Shown: positions 3,480-39,466 of the stretch, one piece after another | Layout of the letters: each line of letters opens with the position of its first letter | Position numbering within the stretch: position 1 is the first letter of the stretch | Sequence record: PZ445457.1 | From: a phage | Strand: one strand, 5' to 3' | DNA: 39,466 bases | Translations under genes and position numbers: made by a program | The notes under the pieces: model-generated | Seen by the model: only the letters and a program-made list of their open reading frames with translations | Databases searched by the model: none | Told to the model about the DNA's origin: nothing

Positions 3480-6400
3480 GTGGATAAGTATAACCCGAAC
3501 GAACCGCATGAATATGATGCGTTATTTCAACAAGCTGCTGACACACATGGAGTCTCCTATGGCCTTCTTCGGAAGGTCGGTTGGGTAGAGTCCCGCTTTA
3601 AACCTACGGCTCAATCACCAACAGGGCCGCGAGGTGTCATGCAGTTCACTAAGGCAACTGGTCAGGCTTATGGTCTCCAGAACGATGAGGACTTCACTGA
3701 CCCGGCTAAGTCCATTGATGCAGGTGCTCGTTACCTTGCAGACCTCGTTAAGAAGTACGATGGCGATGAACTTAAAGCTGCCCTAGCGTACAACCAAGGT
3801 GAAGGACGCAATGGTAAGCCACAACTGGAAGCCTACGATTCTGGCAACTTTGCCAACATTGGGGATGAAGGTCGTAACTATCTCCGCTCACTTCTGGATG
3901 TCGCTAAGTCTCCTAAGAGTGGTGACATTGAGTCCTTCGGTGGTATCACCCCAAAGGGTAAAGGGATTCCGTTCGATGCTGCTATGAGTGGTATCGGGAA
4001 GAAAGGAAAGGTAACTACAGAACTCCCTGAGTCTCACTCAATGTCCTTTCAAGGTAAAGAACAGGCCGCTCCCAATCAGCCGTTCGGAAAAGACTATTGG
4101 GAAGCAAAAGGAACTACACTCGACGAAGCCAATGAGCGTTCAACCTTCTTCGGATTCGGTAATGCTGCTGAAGCAGAACTCTCCAACTCAACCTTGGGTG
4201 TGGCCTTCCGTGCTGGTAAGCGTGATAATGGTTTCGATGTTGTTACTGATGTACTTCAACCGACACGGTTTAACAGCCACATTTGGTCGCCTGAAGAACT
4301 CGAAAGGATTCGCAACGAAGTGAAGAACCCGGCGTACATGAACGTAGTGCTTGGAGGTTCCTCTGAGAATCTGGATGAACTCATCAAGTTAGCTAACGAG
4401 AACTATGAGTTGGACTCTAAGGCCGCTGATGCTGGACTTGGTGCGAAACTATCTGCTGGGATTATTGGCGCTGGTGTTGACCCGTTGACCTACGTTCCTA
4501 TCGCTGGGACTGCGGCTAAAGGGTTCAAGCTGGTTAACAAGGCGTTGATTGTAGGTGCTCAAGCTGGCGCTCTTAATGTGGCCTCTGAGGGACTCCGCAC
4601 ATCGGTTGCTGGTGGTGATGCTCACTATGCTGAAGCTGCCCTTGCTGGTATGCTATTCGCTGGTGGCCTTACCGCTATTGCTGATGGTGTGGCTGCTGGT
4701 CTCCGTAAGTCCGGTGCCGAACAGATTGAGAACCCGTTTGCTGCTGCACAGATGCGCTTTGAGGCCCGTGAGACTGCCCGTAACACTGGTGGACATGACG
4801 CAAGTCGAATGCCTCCTAGTGAAGACCGAGTGTTCTCACAGCACAACGGCGTTGAGTATTCACCTCTTGAGACCGAACCGGGTGCCGTAGTGTTGCGTGA
4901 TGGTTCCATTATCAGTGACACCAACTTAGCTAACCCGATGACAGCCAAAGAGTTCGCCGAGGTGGACCCTGAACGTGCTGCATGGGGATTGCCTATGCGT
5001 GGACTGAGTGAAATCGGCTTGAGGACTTTACGTTCTGAACACGCTGAAATCCGTGGTCTCGCTAAGGACTTAGTGCGCTCACCTACAGGTATGGAGTCCG
5101 GTACTCATGGTAAGTTCGGTGCTACGGCATCTGACATCAAAGAGCGTCTGCACAATACGAACCAGCGAACCTACAACGACCTCTATAGTGCAATGAAGGA
5201 AGCGATGGCTGACCCTGAGTGGTCTGTGGGTATGTTCAAGCAGGGCGCTCAAGGTGCTCGTCAGGAAATCTATCGTCGTGCTGCAATCGCTATTGAGCGT
5301 CCAGAACTTCAGGCCAACTTAACGAAGGCTGAACGTAAGGTAATGGACATAATGAAGGAACACTTCGACCTCAAGCGTGAGATGATGGAGAACCCCTCTA
5401 TGTTCGGTAACAAGGCAACCTCTATCTTCCCCAATAGTCGCCACAAAGGGACTTACGTTCCTCATGTGTACTCACGGGAAGCAAAGCAGTTGTACTCACA
5501 GGCTCTTGGTGGTACTGACGGTTTACAGGAAGCTATTGTTGCAAGCTGGATGACATCATACCGTTCACGTCCTGAAGTTAAGGCTCGTGTGGATGAGCAT
5601 TTAGCGGAGACCTTGGGTATCGACCCTAAAGCTGTGACCGAAGAGATGGTGATGAAACATGCCAGCGACAAGGCTTATGGTATTGCGAAGACAGATGAGT
5701 TCAACTCTTCAAGTGTCATCGACGATAACATTGAGGGTCTCGTAGGGATTGAGAACAACTCGTTCCTTGAAGCCCGTAACCTGTTCGACTCTGACATGCC
5801 AGTCACCTTACCGAATGGACAACAGTTCTCTGTGAATGACCTCCGTGACTTCGATATGAAGCATGTGATGCCAGCCTATGACCGCCGTGTTGATGGTGAC
5901 ATCGCTATCATGGGTGGTACAGGAAAGACTACTGCTGAACTCAAGGATTCCATTATGGCTCTCGATAAGAAGTCTGAAGGCAAAGGCGCAATGAAAGGTG
6001 AAGTGGAGGCGCTCAAGGATACCATTAAGATTCTCACAGGCCGTGCTCGACGCAATCAGGATACTATGGGTGACACTATGGTTCGCGCTCTGTCCGATAT
6101 GTCCTTCTTTACGAAGAACGCATACATGGGCTTACAGAACCTAACTGAAATCTCCGGTCTCTTGGCGAAGGGTAACACCCGTGCGATGCTTCATGGCATC
6201 CCCGCTCTGCGTGACCTAGCGTTCCGTAACAAGCCAGTGTCCGGTAAGGAACTTAAGGAACTACACTCTATGGTGTTCGGTAAAGAGTTTGATGACTTAA
6301 TCAGACCGACACGTCAGGACATCATTCAGCGACTCCGTGAGTCAACCGATACTCCAGATTTGGCTGCTAAGGTTGTTGGGACTATCAAGCACACGACTCA

Positions 6401-7427
6401 AGAGTTAGCGGCTCGCTCCCCGTTCACCAAGTTCCTGAATGGTACATCAAACTACATTCTCGACATGGCTCGACAGGGTGTGATGGGAGATGTGGTCACT
6501 CATGCTATCACTGGCAAGGGTGCCAACAAGTGGATTAAGAAGGACATGCTGAAGTCTGCGAGTATCTCAAAGGAACAATGGGAAGGCATTCAGAACCTCA
6601 TCCGTGAGAACGTCACTCAAGGTGCTGACGGTAAGTACACCTTCAAGGACAAGCGCAAGCTGGCTAATGACCCTCGTGCTATGGACTTGTGGCGCTTAGC
6701 TGATAAGGTTGCCGATGAGACAATGCTGAGACCTCACAAGGTTTCACTTCAGGATTCTCATGCCTATGGTGCCGCTGCCAAGCTGGTGCTTCAGTTCAAG
6801 TCCTTTGTCATCAAGTCGATGAACGCTAAGTTTATTCGCTCCGGTCACGAGGCTATGAAGAACCATCGAGCTATGGACATGGCGTTAACCTATGCAATCT
6901 CTGGTGGCATCGCTGGTGCTTACTATGTTGCACAGGCGCATATGAAGGCTGCGGGTCTACCTAAAGAGCAACAGAAGGATTACTTGAAGAAAGCTCTTGA
7001 CCCTAAGATGATTGCGTATGCTGCTGCATCCCGTAGTTCACACTTAGGTTCCCCGTTGAGTATCGCCAACTTCGCTATGGGTGCTGCTGGTTACGACCAA
7101 GGTCTCATGGTGCGCTCTACGATTCTACCGAAAGGAGAAGACAAGCGTGACAGGAACAAAGCAGTGACCTCTCGTGATATGGGCGAATCCATCATGGGCG
7201 CTATTGGTGAACAGATTCCTGCTCTTGGTTTCGCTGGGGCAACTCTTGCTGCTGGTCGAAATGCTTATGGTGTCCTAACGGCTCCTAACAAAGTGACCGA
7301 GCGCGAGATGATGACTGGCTTGATGAATGCTCATCGTGAGATGGTTCCTAACGACCCTATCACTCAACAGATGCTCATTAAGTTCTATGAGGCTAACGGT
7401 GTTCACCTTAAGGCTGACAAGAAGTAA
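3480..7427 (+). CDS. gene 16: Internal virion protein gp16 with N-terminal lytic transglycosylase domain (1315 aa), GTG start
   Basis: GTG start; MDKYNP..., SLT-like segment GWVESRF...GVMQFTKATGQAYGL...ALAYNQGEG; collinear with recalled T7 gp16. Confidence 0.95.
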   Translation: MDKYNPNEPHEYDALFQQAADTHGVSYGLLRKVGWVESRFKPTAQSPTGPRGVMQFTKATGQAYGLQNDEDFTDPAKSIDAGARYLADLVKKYDGDELKAALAYNQGEGRNGKPQLEAYDSGNFANIGDEGRNYLRSLLDVAKSPKSGDIESFGGITPKGKGIPFDAAMSGIGKKGKVTTELPESHSMSFQGKEQAAPNQPFGKDYWEAKGTTLDEANERSTFFGFGNAAEAELSNSTLGVAFRAGKRDNGFDVVTDVLQPTRFNSHIWSPEELERIRNEVKNPAYMNVVLGGSSENLDELIKLANENYELDSKAADAGLGAKLSAGIIGAGVDPLTYVPIAGTAAKGFKLVNKALIVGAQAGALNVASEGLRTSVAGGDAHYAEAALAGMLFAGGLTAIADGVAAGLRKSGAEQIENPFAAAQMRFEARETARNTGGHDASRMPPSEDRVFSQHNGVEYSPLETEPGAVVLRDGSIISDTNLANPMTAKEFAEVDPERAAWGLPMRGLSEIGLRTLRSEHAEIRGLAKDLVRSPTGMESGTHGKFGATASDIKERLHNTNQRTYNDLYSAMKEAMADPEWSVGMFKQGAQGARQEIYRRAAIAIERPELQANLTKAERKVMDIMKEHFDLKREMMENPSMFGNKATSIFPNSRHKGTYVPHVYSREAKQLYSQALGGTDGLQEAIVASWMTSYRSRPEVKARVDEHLAETLGIDPKAVTEEMVMKHASDKAYGIAKTDEFNSSSVIDDNIEGLVGIENNSFLEARNLFDSDMPVTLPNGQQFSVNDLRDFDMKHVMPAYDRRVDGDIAIMGGTGKTTAELKDSIMALDKKSEGKGAMKGEVEALKDTIKILTGRARRNQDTMGDTMVRALSDMSFFTKNAYMGLQNLTEISGLLAKGNTRAMLHGIPALRDLAFRNKPVSGKELKELHSMVFGKEFDDLIRPTRQDIIQRLRESTDTPDLAAKVVGTIKHTTQELAARSPFTKFLNGTSNYILDMARQGVMGDVVTHAITGKGANKWIKKDMLKSASISKEQWEGIQNLIRENVTQGADGKYTFKDKRKLANDPRAMDLWRLADKVADETMLRPHKVSLQDSHAYGAAAKLVLQFKSFVIKSMNAKFIRSGHEAMKNHRAMDMALTYAISGGIAGAYYVAQAHMKAAGLPKEQQKDYLKKALDPKMIAYAAASRSSHLGSPLSIANFAMGAAGYDQGLMVRSTILPKGEDKRDRNKAVTSRDMGESIMGAIGEQIPALGFAGATLAAGRNAYGVLTAPNKVTEREMMTGLMNAHREMVPNDPITQQMLIKFYEANGVHLKADKK

Positions 7428-7428
7428 T

Positions 7429-7451
7429 CAATACGACTCACTAATGGGAAG
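7429..7451 (+). promoter_or_regulatory. Phage RNAP promoter (phi17-like)
   Basis: caatacgactcactaatgggaag immediately upstream of the tail fiber gene. Confidence 0.8.
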
Positions 7452-7498
7452 GCTCACACAGCTTCCCTCTATCCAACACATTCGAAAGGAGGCTACAG

Positions 7499-9466
7499 AT
7501 GGCTAACAAGATTCGTACTGTGATGACTTACCCGCTGAATGGTGCCGTGAACTTCACGATTACCTTTGATTATCTGGCTCGTAAGTTCATCCAAGTGACA
7601 CTTATTGGTAAAGACCGTAAAGAACTGGTTCTCAATCAGGACTACCGTTTTACCAGTAAGACTCAAATTACAACTACTCGTGCGTGGACTGCCGCTGATG
7701 GCTACCAGATGATTGAGATTCGTCGATTCACTTCGGCTACCGACCGTCTGGTTGATTTTGCTGATGGCTCAATCCTCCGTGCATATGACCTGAACATCTC
7801 GCAGATTCAAACCCTGCACGTTGCCGAAGAAGCACGAGACCTCACTGCGGATACCATTGGTGTCAACAATGATGGTCACTTAGATGCTCGTGGTCGTAAG
7901 ATTGTCAACTTGGCGTATGCCACAAATGACTATGATGCTGTTCCTTTAAAGCAGGTTAAAGAGCGTGAATCCTCTGCATGGAATGCTGTAACAAAGGCTA
8001 ACGAACATGCCGACCGTTCCAATAAGGAAGCAAACCGTTCTCGTGATGAGGCCAACCGTGCTCAACGTGAAGCTGACCGCTCAACTCAACAGGCAGGTGT
8101 CTCTACGCAACAAGCAGTTGAGTCCAAGAAGCAAGCTGACCGTTCCAACTCTGAGGCCAACCGAGCTAAAGGTTATGCTGAAAGTATGACCGCAAGTGTC
8201 GCTGAGGCTAAGAAACAGGCTGACCGTTCCAACTCTGAGGCTAATCGTGCTCGTGATGAGGCCAACCGTGCTGCTGGAGAAGTGACTAAAGCTGCCGCTG
8301 AGGTTGCCAAGGCTGCTGCACACGTTGAGACCGCTAAGGGCCATGCTGACCGAGCCAACACTGAGGCAAACCGCTCTAAGAGTGAAGCTGACCGTGCAAA
8401 GACCGAGGCTGACAAGTTGGGGAACATGAACTCACTGGCTGAGGCTATTGACAGGGTTGAGGCTCCTGATGTTTACTTCAAGAGGAATGTTATAGCCGGA
8501 CACAGATTGGAGACTTCTGGAGGCTCACATCTTCACCCTAATGAGATTAAATTGGTTAACAATAAATCTCCAGACCAGCACTTCATTGTACAAGCGTGGG
8601 GAACTGGAGATCCTAATAATAGGGCGCAGGTGTTTGAGGTGAAGGATAACTTGGGTCAATACGCATTCTATATCCAGCGCCAGAAGAAGACAGACCAAAC
8701 TTGGCAAATGAGTGTGAACGGCTCTCTATCCTGCCAAATAGTAAATTCAAACTTGGGAATAGAATCCACTAACGAGAAGGCCACTGTCAAGTTTAAGACG
8801 TGGGGTGGTGGGTGGGACCAATGGACTGGTGTTGGTGTCCCTAACGTGCAGCATGACATTGCGGGACAGGGAGATGTAGCGTATCTCCTTGAGAGGGCAA
8901 CGATATGGGGCAAGGAACATTTATATGCAAAGGCATTATATAACAACGGCAATGGGGCATCATTCTTCATTCGCCACTACCTGAGAGGGGCATACTTTGA
9001 CCTACGGTCCGATGGCACTCTTATCAGTTCGACTGGTTGGAATATCCCAGCCGATGGCAACCTGTACATCAGGAAGTATGGGCTGTACATTGACGCGTGG
9101 GTCAACAAACGCCTTGGCGAACATGCCTACAACAAGAGCGAGACAGACAACCTAGTGAATGGTCGATTGACACAAGCACAAGCTGATGGGCGATACGTCC
9201 GTAAGAATGCTGGGTGGGCTGAAGTGTGGGAAGGAAGTGCTGGAGGTGGTGTCTCGGTGGGTCTCTCTCAAGATGTCCGCTGGAGAACCATCTGGATTCA
9301 AACACAAGGTCGATGGAACCCTGTTCAAATTGGGGACAATGGGTCTTACTATATCTCATCGAACGGAGGTTGGCTACAGTTTACCATCTCGAATAACGGT
9401 AGAACATTCCGTAACGATGCGGATAGAGCCTCTGTTCCTACGAGAATCTTGGTTCAAAACCAATAA
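7499..9466 (+). CDS. gene 17: Tail fiber protein gp17 (655 aa); conserved N-terminal tail-attachment domain, expanded repetitive shaft, divergent C-terminal receptor-binding region
   Basis: N-terminal ~150 aa and C-terminal tip (WEGSAGGGVSVGLSQDVRWRTIWI...SNGGWLQFTISNNG) match recalled T7 gp17; middle contains ADRSNxEANRA repeats. Confidence 0.95.
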   Translation: MANKIRTVMTYPLNGAVNFTITFDYLARKFIQVTLIGKDRKELVLNQDYRFTSKTQITTTRAWTAADGYQMIEIRRFTSATDRLVDFADGSILRAYDLNISQIQTLHVAEEARDLTADTIGVNNDGHLDARGRKIVNLAYATNDYDAVPLKQVKERESSAWNAVTKANEHADRSNKEANRSRDEANRAQREADRSTQQAGVSTQQAVESKKQADRSNSEANRAKGYAESMTASVAEAKKQADRSNSEANRARDEANRAAGEVTKAAAEVAKAAAHVETAKGHADRANTEANRSKSEADRAKTEADKLGNMNSLAEAIDRVEAPDVYFKRNVIAGHRLETSGGSHLHPNEIKLVNNKSPDQHFIVQAWGTGDPNNRAQVFEVKDNLGQYAFYIQRQKKTDQTWQMSVNGSLSCQIVNSNLGIESTNEKATVKFKTWGGGWDQWTGVGVPNVQHDIAGQGDVAYLLERATIWGKEHLYAKALYNNGNGASFFIRHYLRGAYFDLRSDGTLISSTGWNIPADGNLYIRKYGLYIDAWVNKRLGEHAYNKSETDNLVNGRLTQAQADGRYVRKNAGWAEVWEGSAGGGVSVGLSQDVRWRTIWIQTQGRWNPVQIGDNGSYYISSNGGWLQFTISNNGRTFRNDADRASVPTRILVQNQ

Positions 9467-9510: not shown

Positions 9511-9717
9511 ATGTTGTCATTGGATTTTAACAACGAGGTAGTGAAGGCTGCTCCGATTGTAGGGACAGGTGTAGCCGATGGTGCTGCCAGACTGTTCTTC
9601 GGCCTATCACTTAACGAGTGGTTTTATGTAGCCGCAATTGCCTACACAGTGGCTCAAATTGGTGCCAAGGTAGTCGATGTGGTTATCAAATGGAAGAAGG
9701 AGGGTAGAGATGTCTAA
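9511..9717 (+). CDS. gene 17.5: Class II holin gp17.5 (68 aa)
   Basis: MLSLDFNNEVVKAAPIVGTGVADGAARLFFGLSLNEWFYVAAIAYTVAQIGAKVVD, near identical to recalled T7 gp17.5. Confidence 0.95.
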   Translation: MLSLDFNNEVVKAAPIVGTGVADGAARLFFGLSLNEWFYVAAIAYTVAQIGAKVVDVVIKWKKEGRDV

Positions 9718-10014: not shown

Positions 10015-10077
10015 TATGAATTATCAACACAACTCACGGTGACTCTACGTGAAATCTGAGAAATGGGGAGGGTAGTT

Positions 10078-10518
10078 ATGCTCAAGAATTTAAAGAGCTA
10101 CGCCATCGCTGTGGCCTTTGCCTTGGGACTGACCCTTGCGTACAACCACGGCTATGACAAGGCTGACACTAAATGGAAACTGGAGGTGCACAATGAGTAC
10201 GTTAAGAAAGTTGAGGCGACTGCGGATAAACAGGCTGCTCTCAATGAAGTCTCACGACAATACCAAGAAGACCTTGCGGCGCTGGAAGGCAGCACTGATA
10301 GGGTCATTAATGATTTGCGTAACGATGGTAAGCGGCTGCGTGTCAAACTATCAGCCACCTCACGAGAACTCCAAGCTAACGGTGGATGCCTCGTTGATGG
10401 TCGAGCCGAACTTGACGAAGAGTTTAGTAAGCGTCTTATCGGAGTAACACAAAGAGGGGATGCGTGGATTAGAGCGCTCCAAGGTACAATAACTGAAATG
10501 CAACGTAAGGAGAAATAA
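10078..10518 (+). CDS. gene 18.5: i-spanin (Rz-like) gp18.5
   Basis: N-terminal TM segment, then KWKLEVHNEYVKKVEA...YQEDLAALEGSTDRVINDLRNDGKRLRV...GDAWIRALQ matching recalled T7 gp18.5. Start at second ATG (10078) after RBS ggggagg; 10063 is an alternative. Confidence 0.85.
   Translation: MLKNLKSYAIAVAFALGLTLAYNHGYDKADTKWKLEVHNEYVKKVEATADKQAALNEVSRQYQEDLAALEGSTDRVINDLRNDGKRLRVKLSATSRELQANGGCLVDGRAELDEEFSKRLIGVTQRGDAWIRALQGTITEMQRKEK
10193..10447 (+). CDS. gene 18.7: o-spanin (Rz1-like lipoprotein) gp18.7, embedded in gene 18.5 in +1 frame
   Basis: MSTLRKLRRLR...LIGSLMICVTMVSGCVS (lipobox-like SGC) ...LTVDASLMVEPNLT matches recalled T7 gp18.7; start is an internal ATG of the 10136..10447 track ORF. 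Confidence 0.75.
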   Translation: MSTLRKLRRLRINRLLSMKSHDNTKKTLRRWKAALIGSLMICVTMVSGCVSNYQPPHENSKLTVDASLMVEPNLTKSLVSVLSE

Positions 10519-10519
10519 T

Positions 10520-11077
10520 ATGTCTACTGTAAACTCAAGAACCCGTACAATCTGGACTATCAATGGTCGCTCACCGGACAGCCGCGATATGTACGACCGA
10601 AACAATGTTGGCCTTCGTGTTGGGCGTATCGACATCCCGGCTTCAGAAATGGTCAAGGTAGATGGATACGACAAGGTTGAGTATGTGGTCCAACTGAGTG
10701 ATGGTACAACCGAGCAACATGCTACCTTTGAGATCCTGATGTCCACTTGGGGTGGCTCCGTCGAGTCTAAACCGGGTAGTGGGTTCATGACGGTATTCCT
10801 GAATGAGCAAAGCGCTGAGCGGCTCGGTATGGTTCGAATCGACGTATACAAAGAGTGGACTGGTGCCGACCCTGAACCAGAAGGTGGTTCTGCTTCGTTA
10901 GTTAGTGCAGCGCTTTCTGCGTCTGATAGTGCATTTGGTACACAGTTCGTGGATAGCGAAGGAAAGAGCGCTTCCGTTATGTTCCAACCTAGTAACATCG
11001 ACGGGGCTGTATCTAAGACCGACACTATCAAGGCTCTTGAGAAGCGAATCGCTGCTTTAGAGAAACCTACCGAGTAA
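10520..11077 (+). CDS. Hypothetical protein (185 aa), lineage-specific insertion between 18.5 and terminase large subunit; no recognisable motifs
   Basis: Strong RBS taaggag 7 nt upstream, natural-looking composition, no Cys/His motifs, C-terminal amphipathic helix KTDTIKALEKRIAALEK. No T7 counterpart at this position that I recall. Confidence 0.7.
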   Translation: MSTVNSRTRTIWTINGRSPDSRDMYDRNNVGLRVGRIDIPASEMVKVDGYDKVEYVVQLSDGTTEQHATFEILMSTWGGSVESKPGSGFMTVFLNEQSAERLGMVRIDVYKEWTGADPEPEGGSASLVSAALSASDSAFGTQFVDSEGKSASVMFQPSNIDGAVSKTDTIKALEKRIAALEKPTE

Positions 11078-12940: not shown

Positions 12941-12963
12941 TAATACGACTCACTATTGGGAAG
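12941..12963 (+). promoter_or_regulatory. Phage RNAP promoter (phiOR-like), upstream of gene 19.5
   Basis: taatacgactcactattgggaag. Confidence 0.8.
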
Positions 12964-13276: not shown

Positions 13277-13738
13277 ACTGCTCATCGGCGCTTAGTGCGC
13301 TCTTAGTGATTATGGTCGATATATACATCTTCCCTATAATCACTGTAAGAAGTCAACTCTAAGAGTAACCCTTATGTACCACTCTCTATGGTCTACAGGG
13401 TCTCTTAGGGTCTCTCACGTAGTCTCACCGCTATGCTCCTGCGTAGCACCTTATGATAGAGCCTCTGTGGTTAACCTTATGAGCCTTGATGTACCCCCCT
13501 TTAAGAATCCTACAGAAAAATCTGAGAGGGTATCTCATAGTTCATACAAAGTGTTTCCCCCCTATGGCCTCCTTCAGTCCACTCAAAGAGTGCCACCCCT
13601 ATGGTAACTTTATGTTTACTTAATGTCAATCCTTATGTGAGACATTGGGATGACTTATGGTTCACCACTAGATGTGGTGCTTAGGGTGACTTAGTGATAC
13701 TATATGTAGTCCTCTATGTGTCCCTATCTGTAAGTGAC

Positions 13739-14077: not shown

Positions 14078-14100
14078 TTATACGACTCACTAATGGGATA
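14078..14100 (+). promoter_or_regulatory. Phage RNAP promoter (phiOL-like)
   Basis: ttatacgactcactaatgggata, first phage promoter after the genome-end region. Confidence 0.65.
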
Positions 14101-34222: not shown

Positions 34223-35134
34223 ATGGCTGGTGAATCTAACGCTGATGTATACGCATCTTTTGGTGTGAACTCTGCGGTTGTCGGTGGGTCTACTCCTACT
34301 GACCACGAACAGGCTATGCTTGAACTCGACGTTGCTGCCCGTGATGGTGATGATGCAATCGAGTTAGTAAGTAATGATGACCCGTATGGCAATCCAGACC
34401 CGTTCGGTGAGGAAGACGAAGACCGCACTGAGATTCGTATCTCCACTGATGGTGAACCTGAAGTAAGCGAAGATGGCGAAATCGAATACGAAGAGGCAGA
34501 AGGTGACGAAGCTGATGGTTTCGAACCAGTTGGTGACATTCCGGCTGAACTGAATGAAGCCTCAAGTCAACTCGAAGAGCATGAAGCTGGCTTTGAAGAG
34601 ATGGTCAATCAGGCTGCTGAACGTGGTCTGTCAGAAGAGACCATTGTCCGTATCCAACAGGAGTATGGCGAAGATGGCCTGTCAGAAGAGTCTTATGAAG
34701 AACTGGCGAAGGCTGGTTACTCTAAGTCCTTTGTTGACTCCTACATCCGTGGTCAGGAAGCTCTGGTAGACCAGTACGTTAAGTCTGTCATGCAGTTCGC
34801 TGGTGGTGAAGAACAGTTCCAAGCAATCTATAGTCACCTCGAAGTATCAAACCCTGATGCTGCCGAGTCTCTGATTAGTGCTCTGGAAAATCGTGACATC
34901 GCTACAGTGAAGGCTATCGTAAATCTCGCTGGTGCAAGCCGTGCGAAGACTTTCGGTAAACCTGCTGCTCGCAGTATCTCTAAACGTGCCGTACCTGCTG
35001 CACCTGTGCGCACCAAACAGTCTGGCTTTGAGTCACAGGCTGAGATGATTAGTGCAATGTCTGACCCTCGCTACCGCACGGACTCTAAGTTCCGAGCAGA
35101 AGTTGAGCGCAAGATGATGTACAGTCAGTTCTAA
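34223..35134 (+). CDS. gene 9: Capsid assembly (scaffolding) protein gp9 (303 aa)
   Basis: MAGESNADVYASFGVNSAV... and C-terminal AMSDPRYRTDSKFRAEVERKMMYSQF match recalled T7 gp9; start is an internal ATG after RBS gaaggag. Confidence 0.95.
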   Translation: MAGESNADVYASFGVNSAVVGGSTPTDHEQAMLELDVAARDGDDAIELVSNDDPYGNPDPFGEEDEDRTEIRISTDGEPEVSEDGEIEYEEAEGDEADGFEPVGDIPAELNEASSQLEEHEAGFEEMVNQAAERGLSEETIVRIQQEYGEDGLSEESYEELAKAGYSKSFVDSYIRGQEALVDQYVKSVMQFAGGEEQFQAIYSHLEVSNPDAAESLISALENRDIATVKAIVNLAGASRAKTFGKPAARSISKRAVPAAPVRTKQSGFESQAEMISAMSDPRYRTDSKFRAEVERKMMYSQF

Positions 35135-35137
35135 AAT

Positions 35138-35160
35138 TAATACGACTCACTATTGGGAGA
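35138..35160 (+). promoter_or_regulatory. Phage RNAP promoter (phi10-like), full consensus match
   Basis: taatacgactcactattgggaga followed by 5' stem-loop gggaga...tctccc and a leader containing ttaaactttaa plus RBS aaggag. Confidence 0.85.
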
Positions 35161-35261
35161 GACATTACGTTCTCCCACTTTGAGTGATACACAATGAGAA
35201 CCAACTCGTTTCAAGTAGTACCTCACACATTAAACTTTAAATCAACAGAAGGAGATTCAAC

Positions 35262-36305
35262 ATGGCTAAGATGAATGGTGGTCAGCAAATTGGTAAAGAC
35301 CAAGGTAAAGGTATGTCTGCTGGTGATAAACTGGCTCTGTTCCTGAAAGTGTTCGGTGGTGAAGTTCTTACCGCGTTTACTCGTACCTCTGTTACCATGA
35401 ACAAACACCTCGTGCGTTCCATTCAGTCCGGTAAGTCCGCGCAGTTCCCTGTGCTGGGTCGTACCAAAGCTGCTTACCTGCAACCGGGTGAGAACCTCGA
35501 TGACAAACGTAAAGACATGAAGCACACTGAGAAGGTCATCAACATCGATGGTCTGCTGACTGCTGACGTTCTGATTTACGACATCGAAGACGCAATGAAC
35601 CACTATGACGTGCGCTCCGAGTATACCGCACAGTTGGGTGAATCTCTTGCGATGGCTGCTGATGGCGCGGTTCTGGCTGAAATGGCTAAACTGTGTAACC
35701 TGCCGTCTGCGTCTAATGAGAACATCGCTGGTCTCGGTAAGGCTTATGTACTGGAAGTTGGCAAGCAGTCTGATCTTCAGGGAGACCAAGTTAAGCTGGG
35801 TCAGGCTATTATCGCACAGTTAACTCTGGCTCGTGCCAAGCTGACTAGCAACTATGTTCCGTCTGCTGACCGTGTGTTCTACACCACTCCAGACAACTAC
35901 TCTGCTATTCTGGCTGCTCTGATGCCTAACGCTGCAAACTATCAGGCTCTGATTGACCCGTCTACTGGCTCTATCCGCAACGTTATGGGCTTCGAAGTTA
36001 TTGAGGTTCCGCATCTGACTGCTGGTGGTGCTGGCGAAGACCGTCCAGAAGAGGGTGTAAATCCGACTGGTCAGAAACATGCGTTCCCTGAGACTTCCTC
36101 TGGTGACACCCGTGTTGCTCTGGACAACGTTGTCGGTCTGTTCAATCACCGCTCTGCCGTTGGTACTGTTAAGCTGAAAGATATGGCACTGGAACGTGCT
36201 CGTCGAGCTAACTTCCAAGCAGACCAGATTATCGCTAAGTACGCTATGGGTCACGGTGGTCTGCGCCCTGAAGCATGTGGTGCGCTGGTTTTCAACAAGG
36301 CTTAA
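35262..36305 (+). CDS. gene 10A: Major capsid protein gp10A (347 aa)
   Basis: Collinear with recalled T7 gp10A (GDKLALFLKVFGGEVLTAF.RTSVT, DKRKD.KHTEKVI.IDGLLTADVLIYDIEDAMNHYDVRSEYT, ERARRANFQADQIIAKYAMGHGGLRPEA). Confidence 0.98.
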   Translation: MAKMNGGQQIGKDQGKGMSAGDKLALFLKVFGGEVLTAFTRTSVTMNKHLVRSIQSGKSAQFPVLGRTKAAYLQPGENLDDKRKDMKHTEKVINIDGLLTADVLIYDIEDAMNHYDVRSEYTAQLGESLAMAADGAVLAEMAKLCNLPSASNENIAGLGKAYVLEVGKQSDLQGDQVKLGQAIIAQLTLARAKLTSNYVPSADRVFYTTPDNYSAILAALMPNAANYQALIDPSTGSIRNVMGFEVIEVPHLTAGGAGEDRPEEGVNPTGQKHAFPETSSGDTRVALDNVVGLFNHRSAVGTVKLKDMALERARRANFQADQIIAKYAMGHGGLRPEACGALVFNKA

Positions 36306-37146: not shown

Positions 37147-39466
37147 ATGGCTCTTATTTCACAATCCGTCAAGAACCTGAAGGGCGGTATCAGTCAACAG
37201 CCAGACATCTTAAGGTTCCCCGAACAGGGTTCCGAACAGATTAACGGCTGGTCTTCGGAGACTGAGGGTCTTCAGAAGCGTCCACCTTTTGTCTTCACTA
37301 AGACCATTGGAGACCAGAATGCCCTTGGTGCAAAACCACTCATCCATTTAATCAACCGCGATAGTGTAGAACAGTATTACGTTGTGTTCACAGGACAGGC
37401 AGTCCGAGTGTTCGACCTCAATGGCAAGGAGTACACCGTGAAAGGTGACTTGAGCTACGTGAAGGTAGGAAACCCGCGTGATGACCTGCGAATGGTGACG
37501 GTTGCTGACTATACGTTTATCGTCAACCGCAACATGGTGGTTCGTGCCGATAAGACACCGCTCTATACTCTGAAAGAGAACGGAGACTGTTTGATTAACG
37601 TTCGAGGTGGACAGTATGGGAGAACGCTTGCATTCACAATAAACAACGTCCGTATTGAGTACAAGATTGCACAAGGTGACAAGCCTGAACATGTGCAAGA
37701 GACCGATGCGCAGTGGCTCGTTAAGAAACTGGCAGGTCTTGCTCGTGCTCACGATTCCTTCAAGGACTGGAAGTTCAACGAGGGGTCTGGCTTCATACAC
37801 GTAATCGCTCCGGGCAACAGTCAGATTAACCAGTTGTCCACCGAGGATGGCTATGCTAACCAGTTGATGAACGCTGTGATGCACACAAGCCAGTCATTCA
37901 GTAAGTTGCCAATCGAGGCTCCTAATGGATACACTGTGAAGATTGTGGGTGACACCTCTAAGACTTCCGATATGTTCTATGTCCAATATGACAACGTGAA
38001 GAAAGTCTGGAAGGAAGTCGCAGGATGGGGAGTTGAGAAGGGTCTCAATAGTGCCACTATGCCACACGCTTTGGTCCGTCAATCAGATGGCTCATTCGCT
38101 ATGCAGGTTCTACCGTGGGCACAGCGCTCTTGTGGGGATATGGATACTAACCCAACTCCGTCTATCGTAGACCAGAAGATTAACGATGTGTTCTTCTTCC
38201 GTAACCGCTTAGGGTTCCTCGCTGGTGAGAACATTGTGATGTCTCGTACCTCCAAGTATTTCTCACTGTTCCCTGCGTCAGTGGCTAACCTGTCAGATGA
38301 TGACCCGATTGATGTGGCTGTATCCCACAACCGTATCTCAATCCTGAAGTATGCCGTACCGTTCTCCGAAGAGTTGCTGCTATGGTCTGACCAAGCACAG
38401 TTCGTTCTGTCTGCCTCTGGCATCCTCTCACCGAAGTCTGTAGAGTTGAACCTTACGACTGAGTTCGATGTGTCCGACCGCGCACGTCCTTATGGTGTTG
38501 GTCGTGGTGTGTACTTTGCGTCACCTCGTGCCTCTTATACATCACTGAACCGCTACTATGCTGTACAGGACGTAAGTTCCGTTAAGTCTGCTGAGGATAT
38601 GAGTGCTCACGTTCCAAGCTATATCCCCAACGGTGTGTTCTCCATTCGTGGTTCTGGTACTGAGAACTTTATCTCTGTGCTCTCTGCGAACGCCCCTAGT
38701 AAAATCTTCCTGTACAAATTCCTGTATCTAAACGAAGAGATTACACAACAGGCGTGGTCACATTGGGAACTTGGAAGTAACGTAACGGTTCTGGCTTGTG
38801 ACTCTATTGGCTCAACTATGTACCTTGTGTTGCGCAATCAGTCACACACTTGGATGTGCCGAGCACACTTCACGAAGAACAGCATTGACTTCGATAGCGA
38901 GCCTTACCGCTTGTATATTGACAACAAGATAAAGTATGTGATTCCTAAAGGTGCCTACAACGATGACACTTACACGACCACTATCAAGCCTGTGGACATC
39001 TACGGGATGAAGTATTGGAAGGGTAAGTTCTACATCGTAGCCTCTGACGGTCTGGTATCGTGGTTCGAGCCACCTCGTGGTGGATGGCCTAATGGTGTCC
39101 CTGTGTTGTCAATGAGTGGGAACCGAGAGGGTGAGACTATTTACATTGGGTTGGCTATAGACTTCCGTTATGTGTTCTCTAAGTTCCTCATTAAGAAGAC
39201 CGCCGATGATGGTTCAACAGCTACCGAGGATATTGGGCGCTTGCAGCTTCGCCGTGCGTGGGTCAACTATGAGGACTCCGGTGCATTCACTGTGGAGGTT
39301 GAGAACACCTCTCGACTCTTCAGCTACGACATGGCTGGTGCTCGCTTGGGTTCCAATGCTCTACGTGCTGGTGGACTTAATGTTGGTACTGGTCAGTTCA
39401 GATTCCCGGTTGCTGGCAACGCGCAGTTGAACGAAGTAAGGATTATCTCTGACCACACTACACCGC
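37147..39466 (+). CDS. gene 12: Tail tubular protein B gp12, N-terminal 773 codons; continues at window position 1
   Basis: MALISQSVKNLKGGISQQPDILRFPEQGS.Q.NGWSSETEGLQKRPP matches recalled T7 gp12; no stop before window end; completes at 1..59. Confidence 0.95.
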   Translation, partial: MALISQSVKNLKGGISQQPDILRFPEQGSEQINGWSSETEGLQKRPPFVFTKTIGDQNALGAKPLIHLINRDSVEQYYVVFTGQAVRVFDLNGKEYTVKGDLSYVKVGNPRDDLRMVTVADYTFIVNRNMVVRADKTPLYTLKENGDCLINVRGGQYGRTLAFTINNVRIEYKIAQGDKPEHVQETDAQWLVKKLAGLARAHDSFKDWKFNEGSGFIHVIAPGNSQINQLSTEDGYANQLMNAVMHTSQSFSKLPIEAPNGYTVKIVGDTSKTSDMFYVQYDNVKKVWKEVAGWGVEKGLNSATMPHALVRQSDGSFAMQVLPWAQRSCGDMDTNPTPSIVDQKINDVFFFRNRLGFLAGENIVMSRTSKYFSLFPASVANLSDDDPIDVAVSHNRISILKYAVPFSEELLLWSDQAQFVLSASGILSPKSVELNLTTEFDVSDRARPYGVGRGVYFASPRASYTSLNRYYAVQDVSSVKSAEDMSAHVPSYIPNGVFSIRGSGTENFISVLSANAPSKIFLYKFLYLNEEITQQAWSHWELGSNVTVLACDSIGSTMYLVLRNQSHTWMCRAHFTKNSIDFDSEPYRLYIDNKIKYVIPKGAYNDDTYTTTIKPVDIYGMKYWKGKFYIVASDGLVSWFEPPRGGWPNGVPVLSMSGNREGETIYIGLAIDFRYVFSKFLIKKTADDGSTATEDIGRLQLRRAWVNYEDSGAFTVEVENTSRLFSYDMAGARLGSNALRAGGLNVGTGQFRFPVAGNAQLNEVRIISDHTTP

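Follow-up and report, generated by a model that had tools for sequence, protein, structure and literature searches.

A longer, mosaic form of the T7 tail fibre, with a shaft of constant length, in the Berlinvirus phage CarlSpitteler

The lateral tail fibre protein of T7, gp17, is known structurally from residues 371-553 (PDB 4A0T) and from its N-terminus (7BOZ, 7EY9), and its proximal region has been reported as a triple coiled coil from AFM imaging, AlphaFold prediction and MD simulation. Closer relatives of the protein studied here are the gp17 proteins of the Escherichia phages PhiV-1, ETEP21B and BA14 (genus Berlinvirus), each of 655 aa. For the ETEP21B fibre, a four-domain AlphaFold2-multimer model has been published, and the phage depends on the LPS core (PMC11267873). 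A Berlinvirus-type fibre has also been described in a Teetrevirus, Sxt1 (Sekstaphage-1), whose 667-aa “extended” protein, compared with T3 and T7, has six insertions within its pyramid domain and one of 27 aa within its helical linker (PMC11680406); its presence in another genus illustrates the movement of fibres between genera.

We analysed gene 17 in the window, by which we mean the whole 39,466-nucleotide stretch of sequence record PZ445457.1; all features given below lie on the + strand unless stated otherwise. The ORF call places gene 17 at 7499..9466, encoding a lateral tail fibre protein of 655 aa plus stop, which matches the “tail fiber protein” profile phrog_4242 end to end (E 1.8e-243, spanning aa 1-655 of the protein and all 628 profile positions). 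It shows 100% identity to the tail fiber protein deposited for Escherichia phage CarlSpitteler (GenBank QXV76844.1). From this exact protein match and the BASEL supplementary table, the phage is identified by sequence as CarlSpitteler (BASEL Bas68, MZ501055), and the owner of gene 17 is a T7-like podovirus belonging to Berlinvirus. Its gp17 equals those of PhiV-1, ETEP21B and BA14 in length and domain order and aligns with them without gaps (91%, 90% and 87% aa identity, respectively), and the shaft of 21 heptads, the tip and the insertion in the linker are common to all four. Identity to the Sxt1 fibre is 70% over the full length, and the two differ in their central cassette as well as in phage genus. 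In a 15-sequence alignment, the window protein shows both hallmarks of the Berlinvirus-type extended fibre, namely a shaft that exceeds those of T7 and T3 by 42 aa and the 27-aa insertion in the linker.

The genomic setting is that of a T7-type fibre gene. Gene 17 sits between gene 16 for internal virion protein D (gp16 at 3480..7427) and the class II holin gene 17.5 (a holin-like ORF at 9511..9717), an order that agrees with T7, PhiV-1 and BA14. Upstream lies the phage RNA-polymerase promoter phi17 (cAATACGACTCACTAATGGGAag, 7429..7451). The window contains 13 matches to TACGACTCACTAWWGGGA, of which this is one; every match is on the + strand, against a chance expectation of 0, and a promoter is annotated at the equivalent position in BA14, ETEP21B, FE44 and T7. 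Direct reading of the sequence places a ribosome-binding site, AAGGAGG, 6 nt 5′ of the ATG (7486..7492), where ETEP21B likewise has an annotated site. Scans for sigma-70 promoters and terminators flanking gene 17 returned background level only.

A preliminary description of this DNA had put gp17 at 655 aa against about 553 in T7, and both lengths were confirmed (ORF 7499..9466; T7 gp17, 553 aa, at 34624..36285 of NC_001604). The difference could in principle be an artefact of an erroneous T7 length, an incorrectly placed start codon or two genes fused into one. We found nothing in favour of such an artefact. The ribosome-binding site and phi17 promoter ahead of the start codon speak against it, and it is refuted by the 553-aa T7 entry, an alignment with T7 running from the first to the final residue, and the gap-free co-linear 655-aa proteins of PhiV-1, BA14 and ETEP21B. 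Of the 102 extra residues, 42 (six heptads) lie in the shaft and about 60 in the central beta region and linker, each of which is longer than its T7 counterpart.

The N-terminal tail-attachment domain (aa 1-163, 7499..7987) was delimited by Pfam, phmmer and identity to T7. Pfam PF03906 (Phage_T7_tail) matches aa 1-154 with an E value of 1.8e-50 and 171 bits (cut-off 25.2), phmmer retrieves the solved T7 gp17 N-termini (7BOZ, 8E4G) with E up to 5e-101, and the 163 residues are 68% identical to T7. As the preliminary description had it, this domain and the C-terminal tip are conserved (the last 87-88 aa are 52-53% identical to T7, 46/88), and the region following the shaft diverges.

The attachment domain is followed by a proximal shaft of 21 unbroken heptads (aa 164-310, 7988..8428), a predicted alpha-helical coiled coil; the T7 shaft has 15. 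Heptad position 1 is A or V in 21/21 heptads and position 4 is A or S in 19/21, whereas position 4 of the core holds Phe, Trp or Tyr in many T7 heptads. AlphaFold2 returned one helix spanning aa 150-316 with a pLDDT of 93-97. By analogy with T7, aa 164-310 would form a trimeric coiled coil, in which the six additional heptads would lengthen the T7-type shaft by roughly 6 nm. Two minus-strand ORFs within the shaft (8081..8344 and 8173..8427) were dismissed, given that 83% of codon-shuffled shafts give an antisense open stretch of 87 codons or more.

Imperfect nucleotide repeats of about 54 bp had been claimed for the shaft. Repeats above chance are indeed present, but their true period is 21 nt: nucleotide autocorrelation of the shaft peaks solely at lags that are multiples of 21 (z = 3 to 8). 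Lag 54 gives z = -0.5, which led us to reject a period of 54 nt; that figure is the length of the motif. The motif ADRSN[KS]EANR[AS]RDEANRA occurs exactly twice, as ADRSNKEANRSRDEANRA (copy 1, aa 171-188, 8009..8062) and ADRSNSEANRARDEANRA (copy 3, aa 241-258, 8219..8272). A shorter, partial copy, ADRSNSEANRA, starts at aa 213 (copy 2, aa 213-223, 8135..8167), and a degenerate one, ADRANTEANRSKSEADRA, at aa 283 (copy 4, aa 283-300, 8345..8398). Two exact direct repeats of 23 nt were found (the first 23 nt of copy 2 equal 8219-8241, and 8250-8272 equal 8040-8062), exceeding the mean of 9.6 nt and the maximum of 15 nt obtained in codon shuffles. The copies are dispersed at 84- to 126-nt spacing with 65-82% identity to the reference copy, and Tandem Repeats Finder, run on gene 17 at a minimum score of 30, returned 0 rows and thus no tandem array. 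An internal duplication of 70 aa (10 heptads, aa 171-240 against 241-310) reaches 28/70 identity, a value equalled in 694 of 20,000 heptad-order shuffles (p ~0.035), and is weakly supported.

The shaft had also been called prone to recombination or slippage, and the corresponding rival explanation holds that its repeats promote slippage or unequal recombination and that the resulting changes in fibre length drive host-range change. The two 23-nt repeats are spaced 84 and 210 nt apart, and because both distances are multiples of 21, a deletion or duplication between copies would keep the reading frame and the heptad register; in relatives, exact repeats with the same 84-nt spacing reach 34-37 nt, and across the wider family shaft lengths do vary, mostly falling into classes of 116 or 158 residues with a few of 134, 136 and 151. 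Against this, shaft length is identical in 12/12 aligned Berlinvirus-type fibres from phages of E. coli, Yersinia, Erwinia, Enterobacter and Pectobacterium. The ADKLGNMN motif, located by motif search, lies at aa 304 in nine Berlinvirus-type fibres and at aa 305 in IME390, compared with 263 in T7. Shaft-length class 158 recurs in 29 further database proteins, and about 15 database proteins beyond the 12 aligned (~80% identical in the N-terminal half) show only 1-2 gap positions in that half, one of them 7. The 28-aa or 70-aa deletion that the repeats predict was seen in no natural isolate. Synonymous sites have diverged between repeat copies (the KKQADRSNSEANRA copies agree at only 37/45 nt, the differences including, by direct reading, 5 synonymous ones over 14 identical codons), the same repeat pattern recurs in the distant phages Yepe2 and PcCB251, and a dN/dS of 0.05-0.07 indicates strong purifying selection on the shaft. 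With shaft length constant and no tandem array, the label slippage-prone is therefore unsupported; nor did the claim of recombination within the shaft hold, as junctions map just past it and inside the C-terminal half of the gene, not between its repeats. We accordingly consider repeat-driven length change very unlikely. As part of the overall explanation that we favour with high confidence, the shaft repeats are old blocks of heptads, in register with one another, within a structural coiled coil that selection keeps constant in length, and not an unstable tract.

Where the shaft ends, a conserved joint (NSLAEAIDRVEAPDVYFKRN, aa 311-330, 8429..8488; 55% identity to T7) marks the helix-to-beta transition, the model helix stopping at aa 316, and serves as the main junction for module exchange. 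N-terminal homology ends within aa 300-349 in 52/124 family members, and homology to S523, Carena and P483 collapses at the joint itself. The CarlSpitteler allele is a recombinant mosaic, with recombination acting 3′ of the shaft. Its first 600 nt are of the Carena-like lineage (99.3% identity to phage Carena), not PhiV-1-like, whereas aa 316-390 are 94-95% identical to PhiV-1 and ETEP21B at the nucleotide level. The main difference from the PhiV-1, ETEP21B and BA14 alleles falls in aa 391-500, at ~70% nt identity or lower (70% to the best relative); this stretch is unlike any sequenced relative, the remainder being generic Berlinvirus sequence. Within it lies a hypervariable patch (aa 391-445, 8669..8833) that has no close relative in the phage collection, with nearest relatives at 50-76% nt identity in sliding windows.

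The patch belongs to an enlarged pyramid-like beta region (aa 331-530, 8489..9088), the variable cassette of the fibre, which is 43 aa longer than in T7, only 26% identical to it, and present in at least five types among relatives. No Pfam domain matched the C-terminal part of the protein, this region included. AlphaFold2 models it as mainly beta, with pLDDT below 50 at aa 439-489 and, beyond this region, at aa 544-564; as the fibre is an obligate trimer and both models are of the monomer, they resolve the architecture of the central module only partly. A structure search with the model of aa 300-655 ranked T7 gp17 371-553 first, followed by other phage fibre or receptor-binding proteins. A depolymerase or esterase role for the module was rejected, as no family matched and the leading structural matches were such fibre or receptor-binding proteins. 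An IMG/VR scan with the central module found three loci only, each probably from an already known phage. With the C-terminal 348 aa, a word-indexed protein search gave 5 matches, and in an exhaustive representative search nearly all matches beyond the protein's own 50%-identity cluster covered only the last 100-150 aa, that is, tip and linker.

The concentration of change in this module raises the question of whether the enlarged pyramid, notably the patch, is a second receptor site that sets Berlinvirus host range instead of the tip. Among the 655-aa alleles, change is focused in the patch (dN = 0.36 and dN/dS 0.54-0.58 against PhiV-1 and ETEP21B), compared with a dN/dS of 0.03-0.11 in the tip and 0.03-0.19 elsewhere in the gene in segments with estimable dS; the module occurs as exchangeable cassettes, the tip is near-invariant among phages of differing host genera, and the authors of the ETEP21B study predicted additional ligand-interface regions in the pyramid domain and proposed the enlarged pyramid as a second binding site (PMC11267873). 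That proposal is, however, a prediction, and no second receptor was found there (PMC11267873). A dN/dS under 1 fits relaxed constraint as well as positive selection, the fold matches are confined to fibre and receptor-binding proteins with no lectin, enzyme or non-fibre fold among them, the loops of the tip determine host range in T7 and T3, and the plating of CarlSpitteler on LPS mutants and an O16 strain resembles that of T7. We therefore regard it as unlikely that such a site sets host range in place of the tip. Likewise improbable is the proposal that the patch, of which CarlSpitteler would carry a so far unique allele, is a second glycan- or protein-binding surface tuning host range independently of the conserved tip.

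The reading that we prefer assigns receptor binding to the tip. It is reached through a linker (aa 531-568, 9089..9202) in which alignment reveals about 27 aa that T7 lacks (NKRLGEHAYNKSETDNLVNGRLTQAQADGRY). The linker forms short helices in the AlphaFold2 model and weakly matches the long-tail-fibre repeat phrog_19966; the same 27-aa insertion has been described in the Sxt1 fibre (PMC11680406), and two extra helices at the linker in that of ETEP21B (PMC11267873). The tip domain (aa 569-655, 9203..9463) is a homologue of the T7 receptor-binding tip, and the window protein has the C-terminal pyramid and tip domains seen in PDB 4A0T. The Pfam models for these domains, PF20744 (gp37_trimer, pyramid) and PF12604 (gp37_C, tip), did not match it even at E up to 10, although they match T7 gp17 (E 1.6e-40 and 1.1e-15, respectively). 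Since the T7 tip, compared directly, gives a highly significant match, the two models appear too narrow, and the homology of the C-terminal half is based on comparing sequences and folds directly.

In its tip, the T7 fold is retained, as are those residues intolerant of substitution that we checked (G476, G510, G522, G532 and S543), whereas three positions known for their role in specificity are changed (N501 to Q, D520 to N and R542 to A). In the BASEL tables the receptor of Bas68 is given as “rough LPS”, and the published plating shows dependence on the LPS core: EOP falls to 0.0016-0.0039 with the rfaC (waaC) mutant and to 0.0004-0.017 with the rfaG (waaG) mutant, and wbbL(+), with restored O16 antigen, gives zero plaques, a complete block. 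ETEP21B, whose fibre is 90% identical, shows a 3-log drop on waaC (PMC11267873). From the published plating of CarlSpitteler, the receptor class is the same as that of T7, the rough LPS core. The tip would bind this core via outward loops, as in T7. The altered receptor specificity proposed in the preliminary description thus stands weakly, in the replacement of N501, D520 and R542, and is opposed by the T7-like plating on LPS-core mutants and O16; from that plating and a conserved tip with replaced specificity positions it follows that fine specificity may differ from T7, but receptor class does not. CarlSpitteler has also been observed to lyse E. coli CFT073 without forming plaques.

Taken as a whole, gene 17 very probably encodes a Berlinvirus lateral tail fibre laid out as attachment domain, 21-heptad helix, joint, pyramid, linker and T7-type tip, in the form of a mosaic allele. 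It is a longer mosaic form of the T7 fibre that is already annotated and already known from close relatives; with the gene in GenBank, the receptor class of the phage published and the extended Berlinvirus architecture known from ETEP21B and Sxt1, the result has little importance beyond bookkeeping. What the analysis adds is the location of the extra residues, a map of the recombination junctions, and a shaft length fixed across the genus despite long exact in-register repeats. It also singles out the 55-aa patch as a candidate for fibre engineering and host-range swaps and, should the patch prove to be a second binding surface, its unique allele could relate to the plaque-less lysis of CFT073.

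By Megablast the window was assigned to the genus Berlinvirus (Autographiviridae, Studiervirinae), with S523, PhiV-1, BA14, 285P and Carena as its nearest genomes; these relatives were drawn from a phage GenBank collection whose matches did not include CarlSpitteler's own record. The 655-aa product of the tail-fibre ORF (7499..9466, + strand), which contains all of the repetitive and divergent stretch, matches GenBank QXV76844.1, 'tail fiber protein [Escherichia phage CarlSpitteler]', with 100% identity. In the BASEL supplementary table this phage appears as Bas68 (MZ501055; 39466 bp), a Berlinvirus with PhiV-1 as its closest relative and 'rough LPS' as its receptor. Gene 17 is therefore already public and annotated, a known gene of known kind. 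The window is a complete genome in permuted form. Position 39459 of the 39461-nt PhiV-1 record, at its right end, aligns to window position 13562, and from this alignment the physical genome ends and terminal repeat should lie near 13.56 kb and not at the window ends.

Gene 17 follows a ribosome-binding site (AAGGAGG, 7486-7492) and a phage-polymerase promoter (7429-7451, core 7432-7449, + strand) matching TACGACTCACTAWWGGGA. Its 5′ neighbour is a gp16 homologue of 1315 aa (3480..7427, +; GTG start in the ORF listing), as long (3948 nt) as the gp16 genes annotated in other phages, among them PhiV-1 and BA14, and its 3′ neighbour is a holin-like ORF of 68 aa (9511..9717), an order common to the window, T7, PhiV-1 and BA14. 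Matches to TACGACTCACTAWWGGGA number 13 in the window, all on the + strand, against a chance expectation of 0, and share the core TACGACTCACTA[AT][AT]GGGA (for example at 91-108, 7432-7449, 12944-12961, 14081-14098 and 35141-35158). They are T7-like, but carry TAATGGGA or TATTGGGA where the T7 promoter consensus has TATAGGGA. An ORF of 185 aa (10520..11077, +), flanked by the genes for an Rz-like spanin (10063..10518) and the terminase large subunit, matches phrog_20446 'unknown function' over its full length (E 2e-121), and a Pfam search with it returned no match; PhiV-1 has a counterpart as a hypothetical protein, whereas no comparable gene is annotated at this position in T7 and T3.

T7 gp17 has 553 aa (NC_001604), so the reference length of about 553 aa given in the preliminary description was right. 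The BLASTP alignment of the window protein with T7 gp17 spans both proteins completely, with 37% identical residues and 122 gap positions. Identity is 68% in the N-terminal domain (aa 1-163; 163 aa vs 164 aa in T7), 36% in the shaft (aa 164-310; 147 vs 105 aa), 55% in the joint (aa 311-330; 20 aa in both), 26% in the central region (aa 331-530; 200 vs 157 aa), 39% in the linker (aa 531-568; 38 vs 18 aa) and 53% in the tip (aa 569-655; 87 vs 89 aa). The extra length is thus real, but its place had to be corrected, since the segment lengths of 147 and 105 aa give the shaft just 42 of the 102 residues beyond T7, and about 63 come from the central region and linker. The claimed divergence of the central region agrees with its 26% identity to T7.

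The shaft motif quoted in the preliminary description occurs in two exact copies (aa 171-188, nt 8009-8062, and aa 241-258, nt 8219-8272), with a short copy from aa 213 and a degenerate one from aa 283. Two pairs of 23-nt exact direct repeats, at 8135/8219 (spacing 84 nt) and 8040/8250 (spacing 210 nt), exceed the longest found in codon shuffles (≤15 nt), confirming that the shaft is repetitive at the nucleotide level. The repeat unit, however, is not the proposed 54 bp or so: autocorrelation of the shaft gave peaks (z = 3.2 to 8.4) solely at lags divisible by 21 nt, the strongest at 21, 105 and 210 nt, and no 54-nt period (lag 54, z = -0.5). Residues 164-310 form 21 unbroken heptads, in which position 1 is Ala/Val in 21/21, position 4 is Ala/Ser in 19/21, and positions 3 and 7 are mostly Arg/Lys and Glu/Gln, respectively. 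AlphaFold2 (monomer, 41-sequence alignment) predicted aa 150-316 to be a single unbroken helix (pLDDT 93-97); this model and that of the C-terminal half are both monomers of a trimeric fibre. T7 has 15 heptads at the position of these 21, and its proximal half-fibre has been reported to be a triple coiled coil from AFM images, an AlphaFold prediction and MD simulation (bioRxiv 10.1101/2025.10.22.683886). Judging from the usual rise per residue, the rod should gain roughly 6 nm over that of T7 from its six additional heptads. Two antisense ORFs in the shaft-coding region (8081..8344, -, 87 aa; 8173..8427, -, 84 aa) were rejected as genes and regarded as composition artefacts, because 83% of codon-shuffled shafts contained an antisense open stretch of 87 codons or more.

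A slippage-prone shaft, as had been suggested, finds no support in these data. Tandem Repeats Finder reported no tandem array in the gene, and shaft length is identical in 12/12 Berlinvirus-type fibres of a 15-sequence alignment, from phages of E. coli, Yersinia pestis, Erwinia, Enterobacter and Pectobacterium and including IME390, a Teseptimavirus with a Berlinvirus-type fibre; the ADKLGNMN motif lies at aa 304 wherever the motif search located it, and at aa 305 in IME390. Among 144 database proteins most shafts measure either 116 (T7/T3 type) or 158 residues (Berlinvirus type), and about 15 proteins with roughly 80% identity in the N-terminal half have 1-2 gap positions in it, with 7 in one. 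Shaft dN/dS is 0.05-0.07. The two KKQADRSNSEANRA copies have 37/45 nt in common, with five synonymous differences over 14 identical codons by direct reading, the repeat pattern is also found in the distant phages Yepe2 and PcCB251, and the copies are old. The exact repeat at 84-nt spacing, which measures 23 nt in the window (8135-8157/8219-8241), reaches up to 34-37 nt in BA14, ETEP21B, P483, S523 and FE44 (nt about 626-660/710-744 of their gene 17). It is kept despite synonymous divergence in the remainder of the shaft, and this exactness might reflect gene conversion between the copies. No in-frame 28-aa deletion between these repeats was seen in any relative compared. With length fixed, dN/dS low, copies old and no deletions seen, the repeats look like building blocks of a length-constrained structural rod.

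Sliding-window and segment identities indicate that gene 17 is a mosaic. Nucleotide identity is 99.3% to Carena over nt 1-600 (aa 1-200), 90-93% to the five closest relatives over nt 601-945 (aa 201-315), 95% to PhiV-1 and 94% to ETEP21B over nt 946-1170 (aa 316-390), about 70% to the best relative over nt 1171-1500 (aa 391-500), and 76-88% to Carena, S523, PhiV-1, ETEP21B and BA14 over nt 1501-1965 (aa 501-655). The conserved joint after the shaft is the main module boundary, since similarity to S523, Carena and P483 breaks down at aa 316-330 and N-terminal similarity to the window protein stops at aa 300-349 in 52/124 family proteins. Downstream of the joint the 15-sequence alignment contains at least five cassette types, and in other family members the C-terminal modules are of quite another kind, matching Pfam domains such as Peptidase_S74 (PF13884) or the tail-collar domain (PF07484).

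The 655-aa alleles differ in amino acids chiefly at aa 391-445, a hypervariable patch of the enlarged pyramid region that may contribute to host recognition. In it dN is 0.36 and dN/dS 0.54-0.58 versus PhiV-1 and ETEP21B; outside this patch dN/dS is 0.03-0.19 where dS is estimable, all values being pairwise Nei-Gojobori estimates on short segments, with dS saturated at aa 446-530. The AlphaFold2 monomer model of aa 300-655 (mean pLDDT 76) has high confidence at aa 339-430 and the tip (85-94), and pLDDT below 50 at aa 439-489 and aa 544-564. The tip keeps T7 residues G476, G479, G510, G522, G532, D540 and S543, but differs at the specificity-switching positions N501, D520 and R542 (eLife 2021, PMC8043750), which are Q603, N622 and A644 (Arg at 643) in the window.

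The preliminary description had asked for experiments and models that largely exist already, since BASEL plating data, an ETEP21B model and the Sxt1 fibre have been described. The ETEP21B fibre, 90% identical to the window protein, has a published AlphaFold2-multimer model with four domains, namely an adaptor, a coiled coil, a pyramid of increased size for which a role as second binding domain was proposed, and a tip attached through two additional helices, and the phage shows a 3-log drop on waaC (PMC11267873). The 'extended' Berlinvirus-type fibre of Sxt1 was described with six insertions in its pyramid and one of 27 aa in its linker (PMC11680406). In the BASEL raw data, CarlSpitteler plates on the rfaC, rfaG and wecB mutants with an EOP of 0.0016-0.0039, 0.0004-0.017 and about 1-4, respectively, gives zero plaques once O16 antigen is restored, and forms plaques on E. 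coli B; according to the BASEL paper, all of its Autographiviridae use the LPS core (PMC8594841). By the LPS-core mutant and O16 plating data, the receptor class of CarlSpitteler is that of T7. Of the interpretation first proposed, the longer fibre and divergent central region stand and the slippage-prone shaft does not; an altered specificity may concern fine specificity, but not the receptor class. CFT073 was lysed by CarlSpitteler in 4/4 experiments, with plaque counts not recorded (BASEL supplementary data); lysis without plaques may represent lysis from without or abortive infection, and this phenotype possibly bears on fibre specificity.
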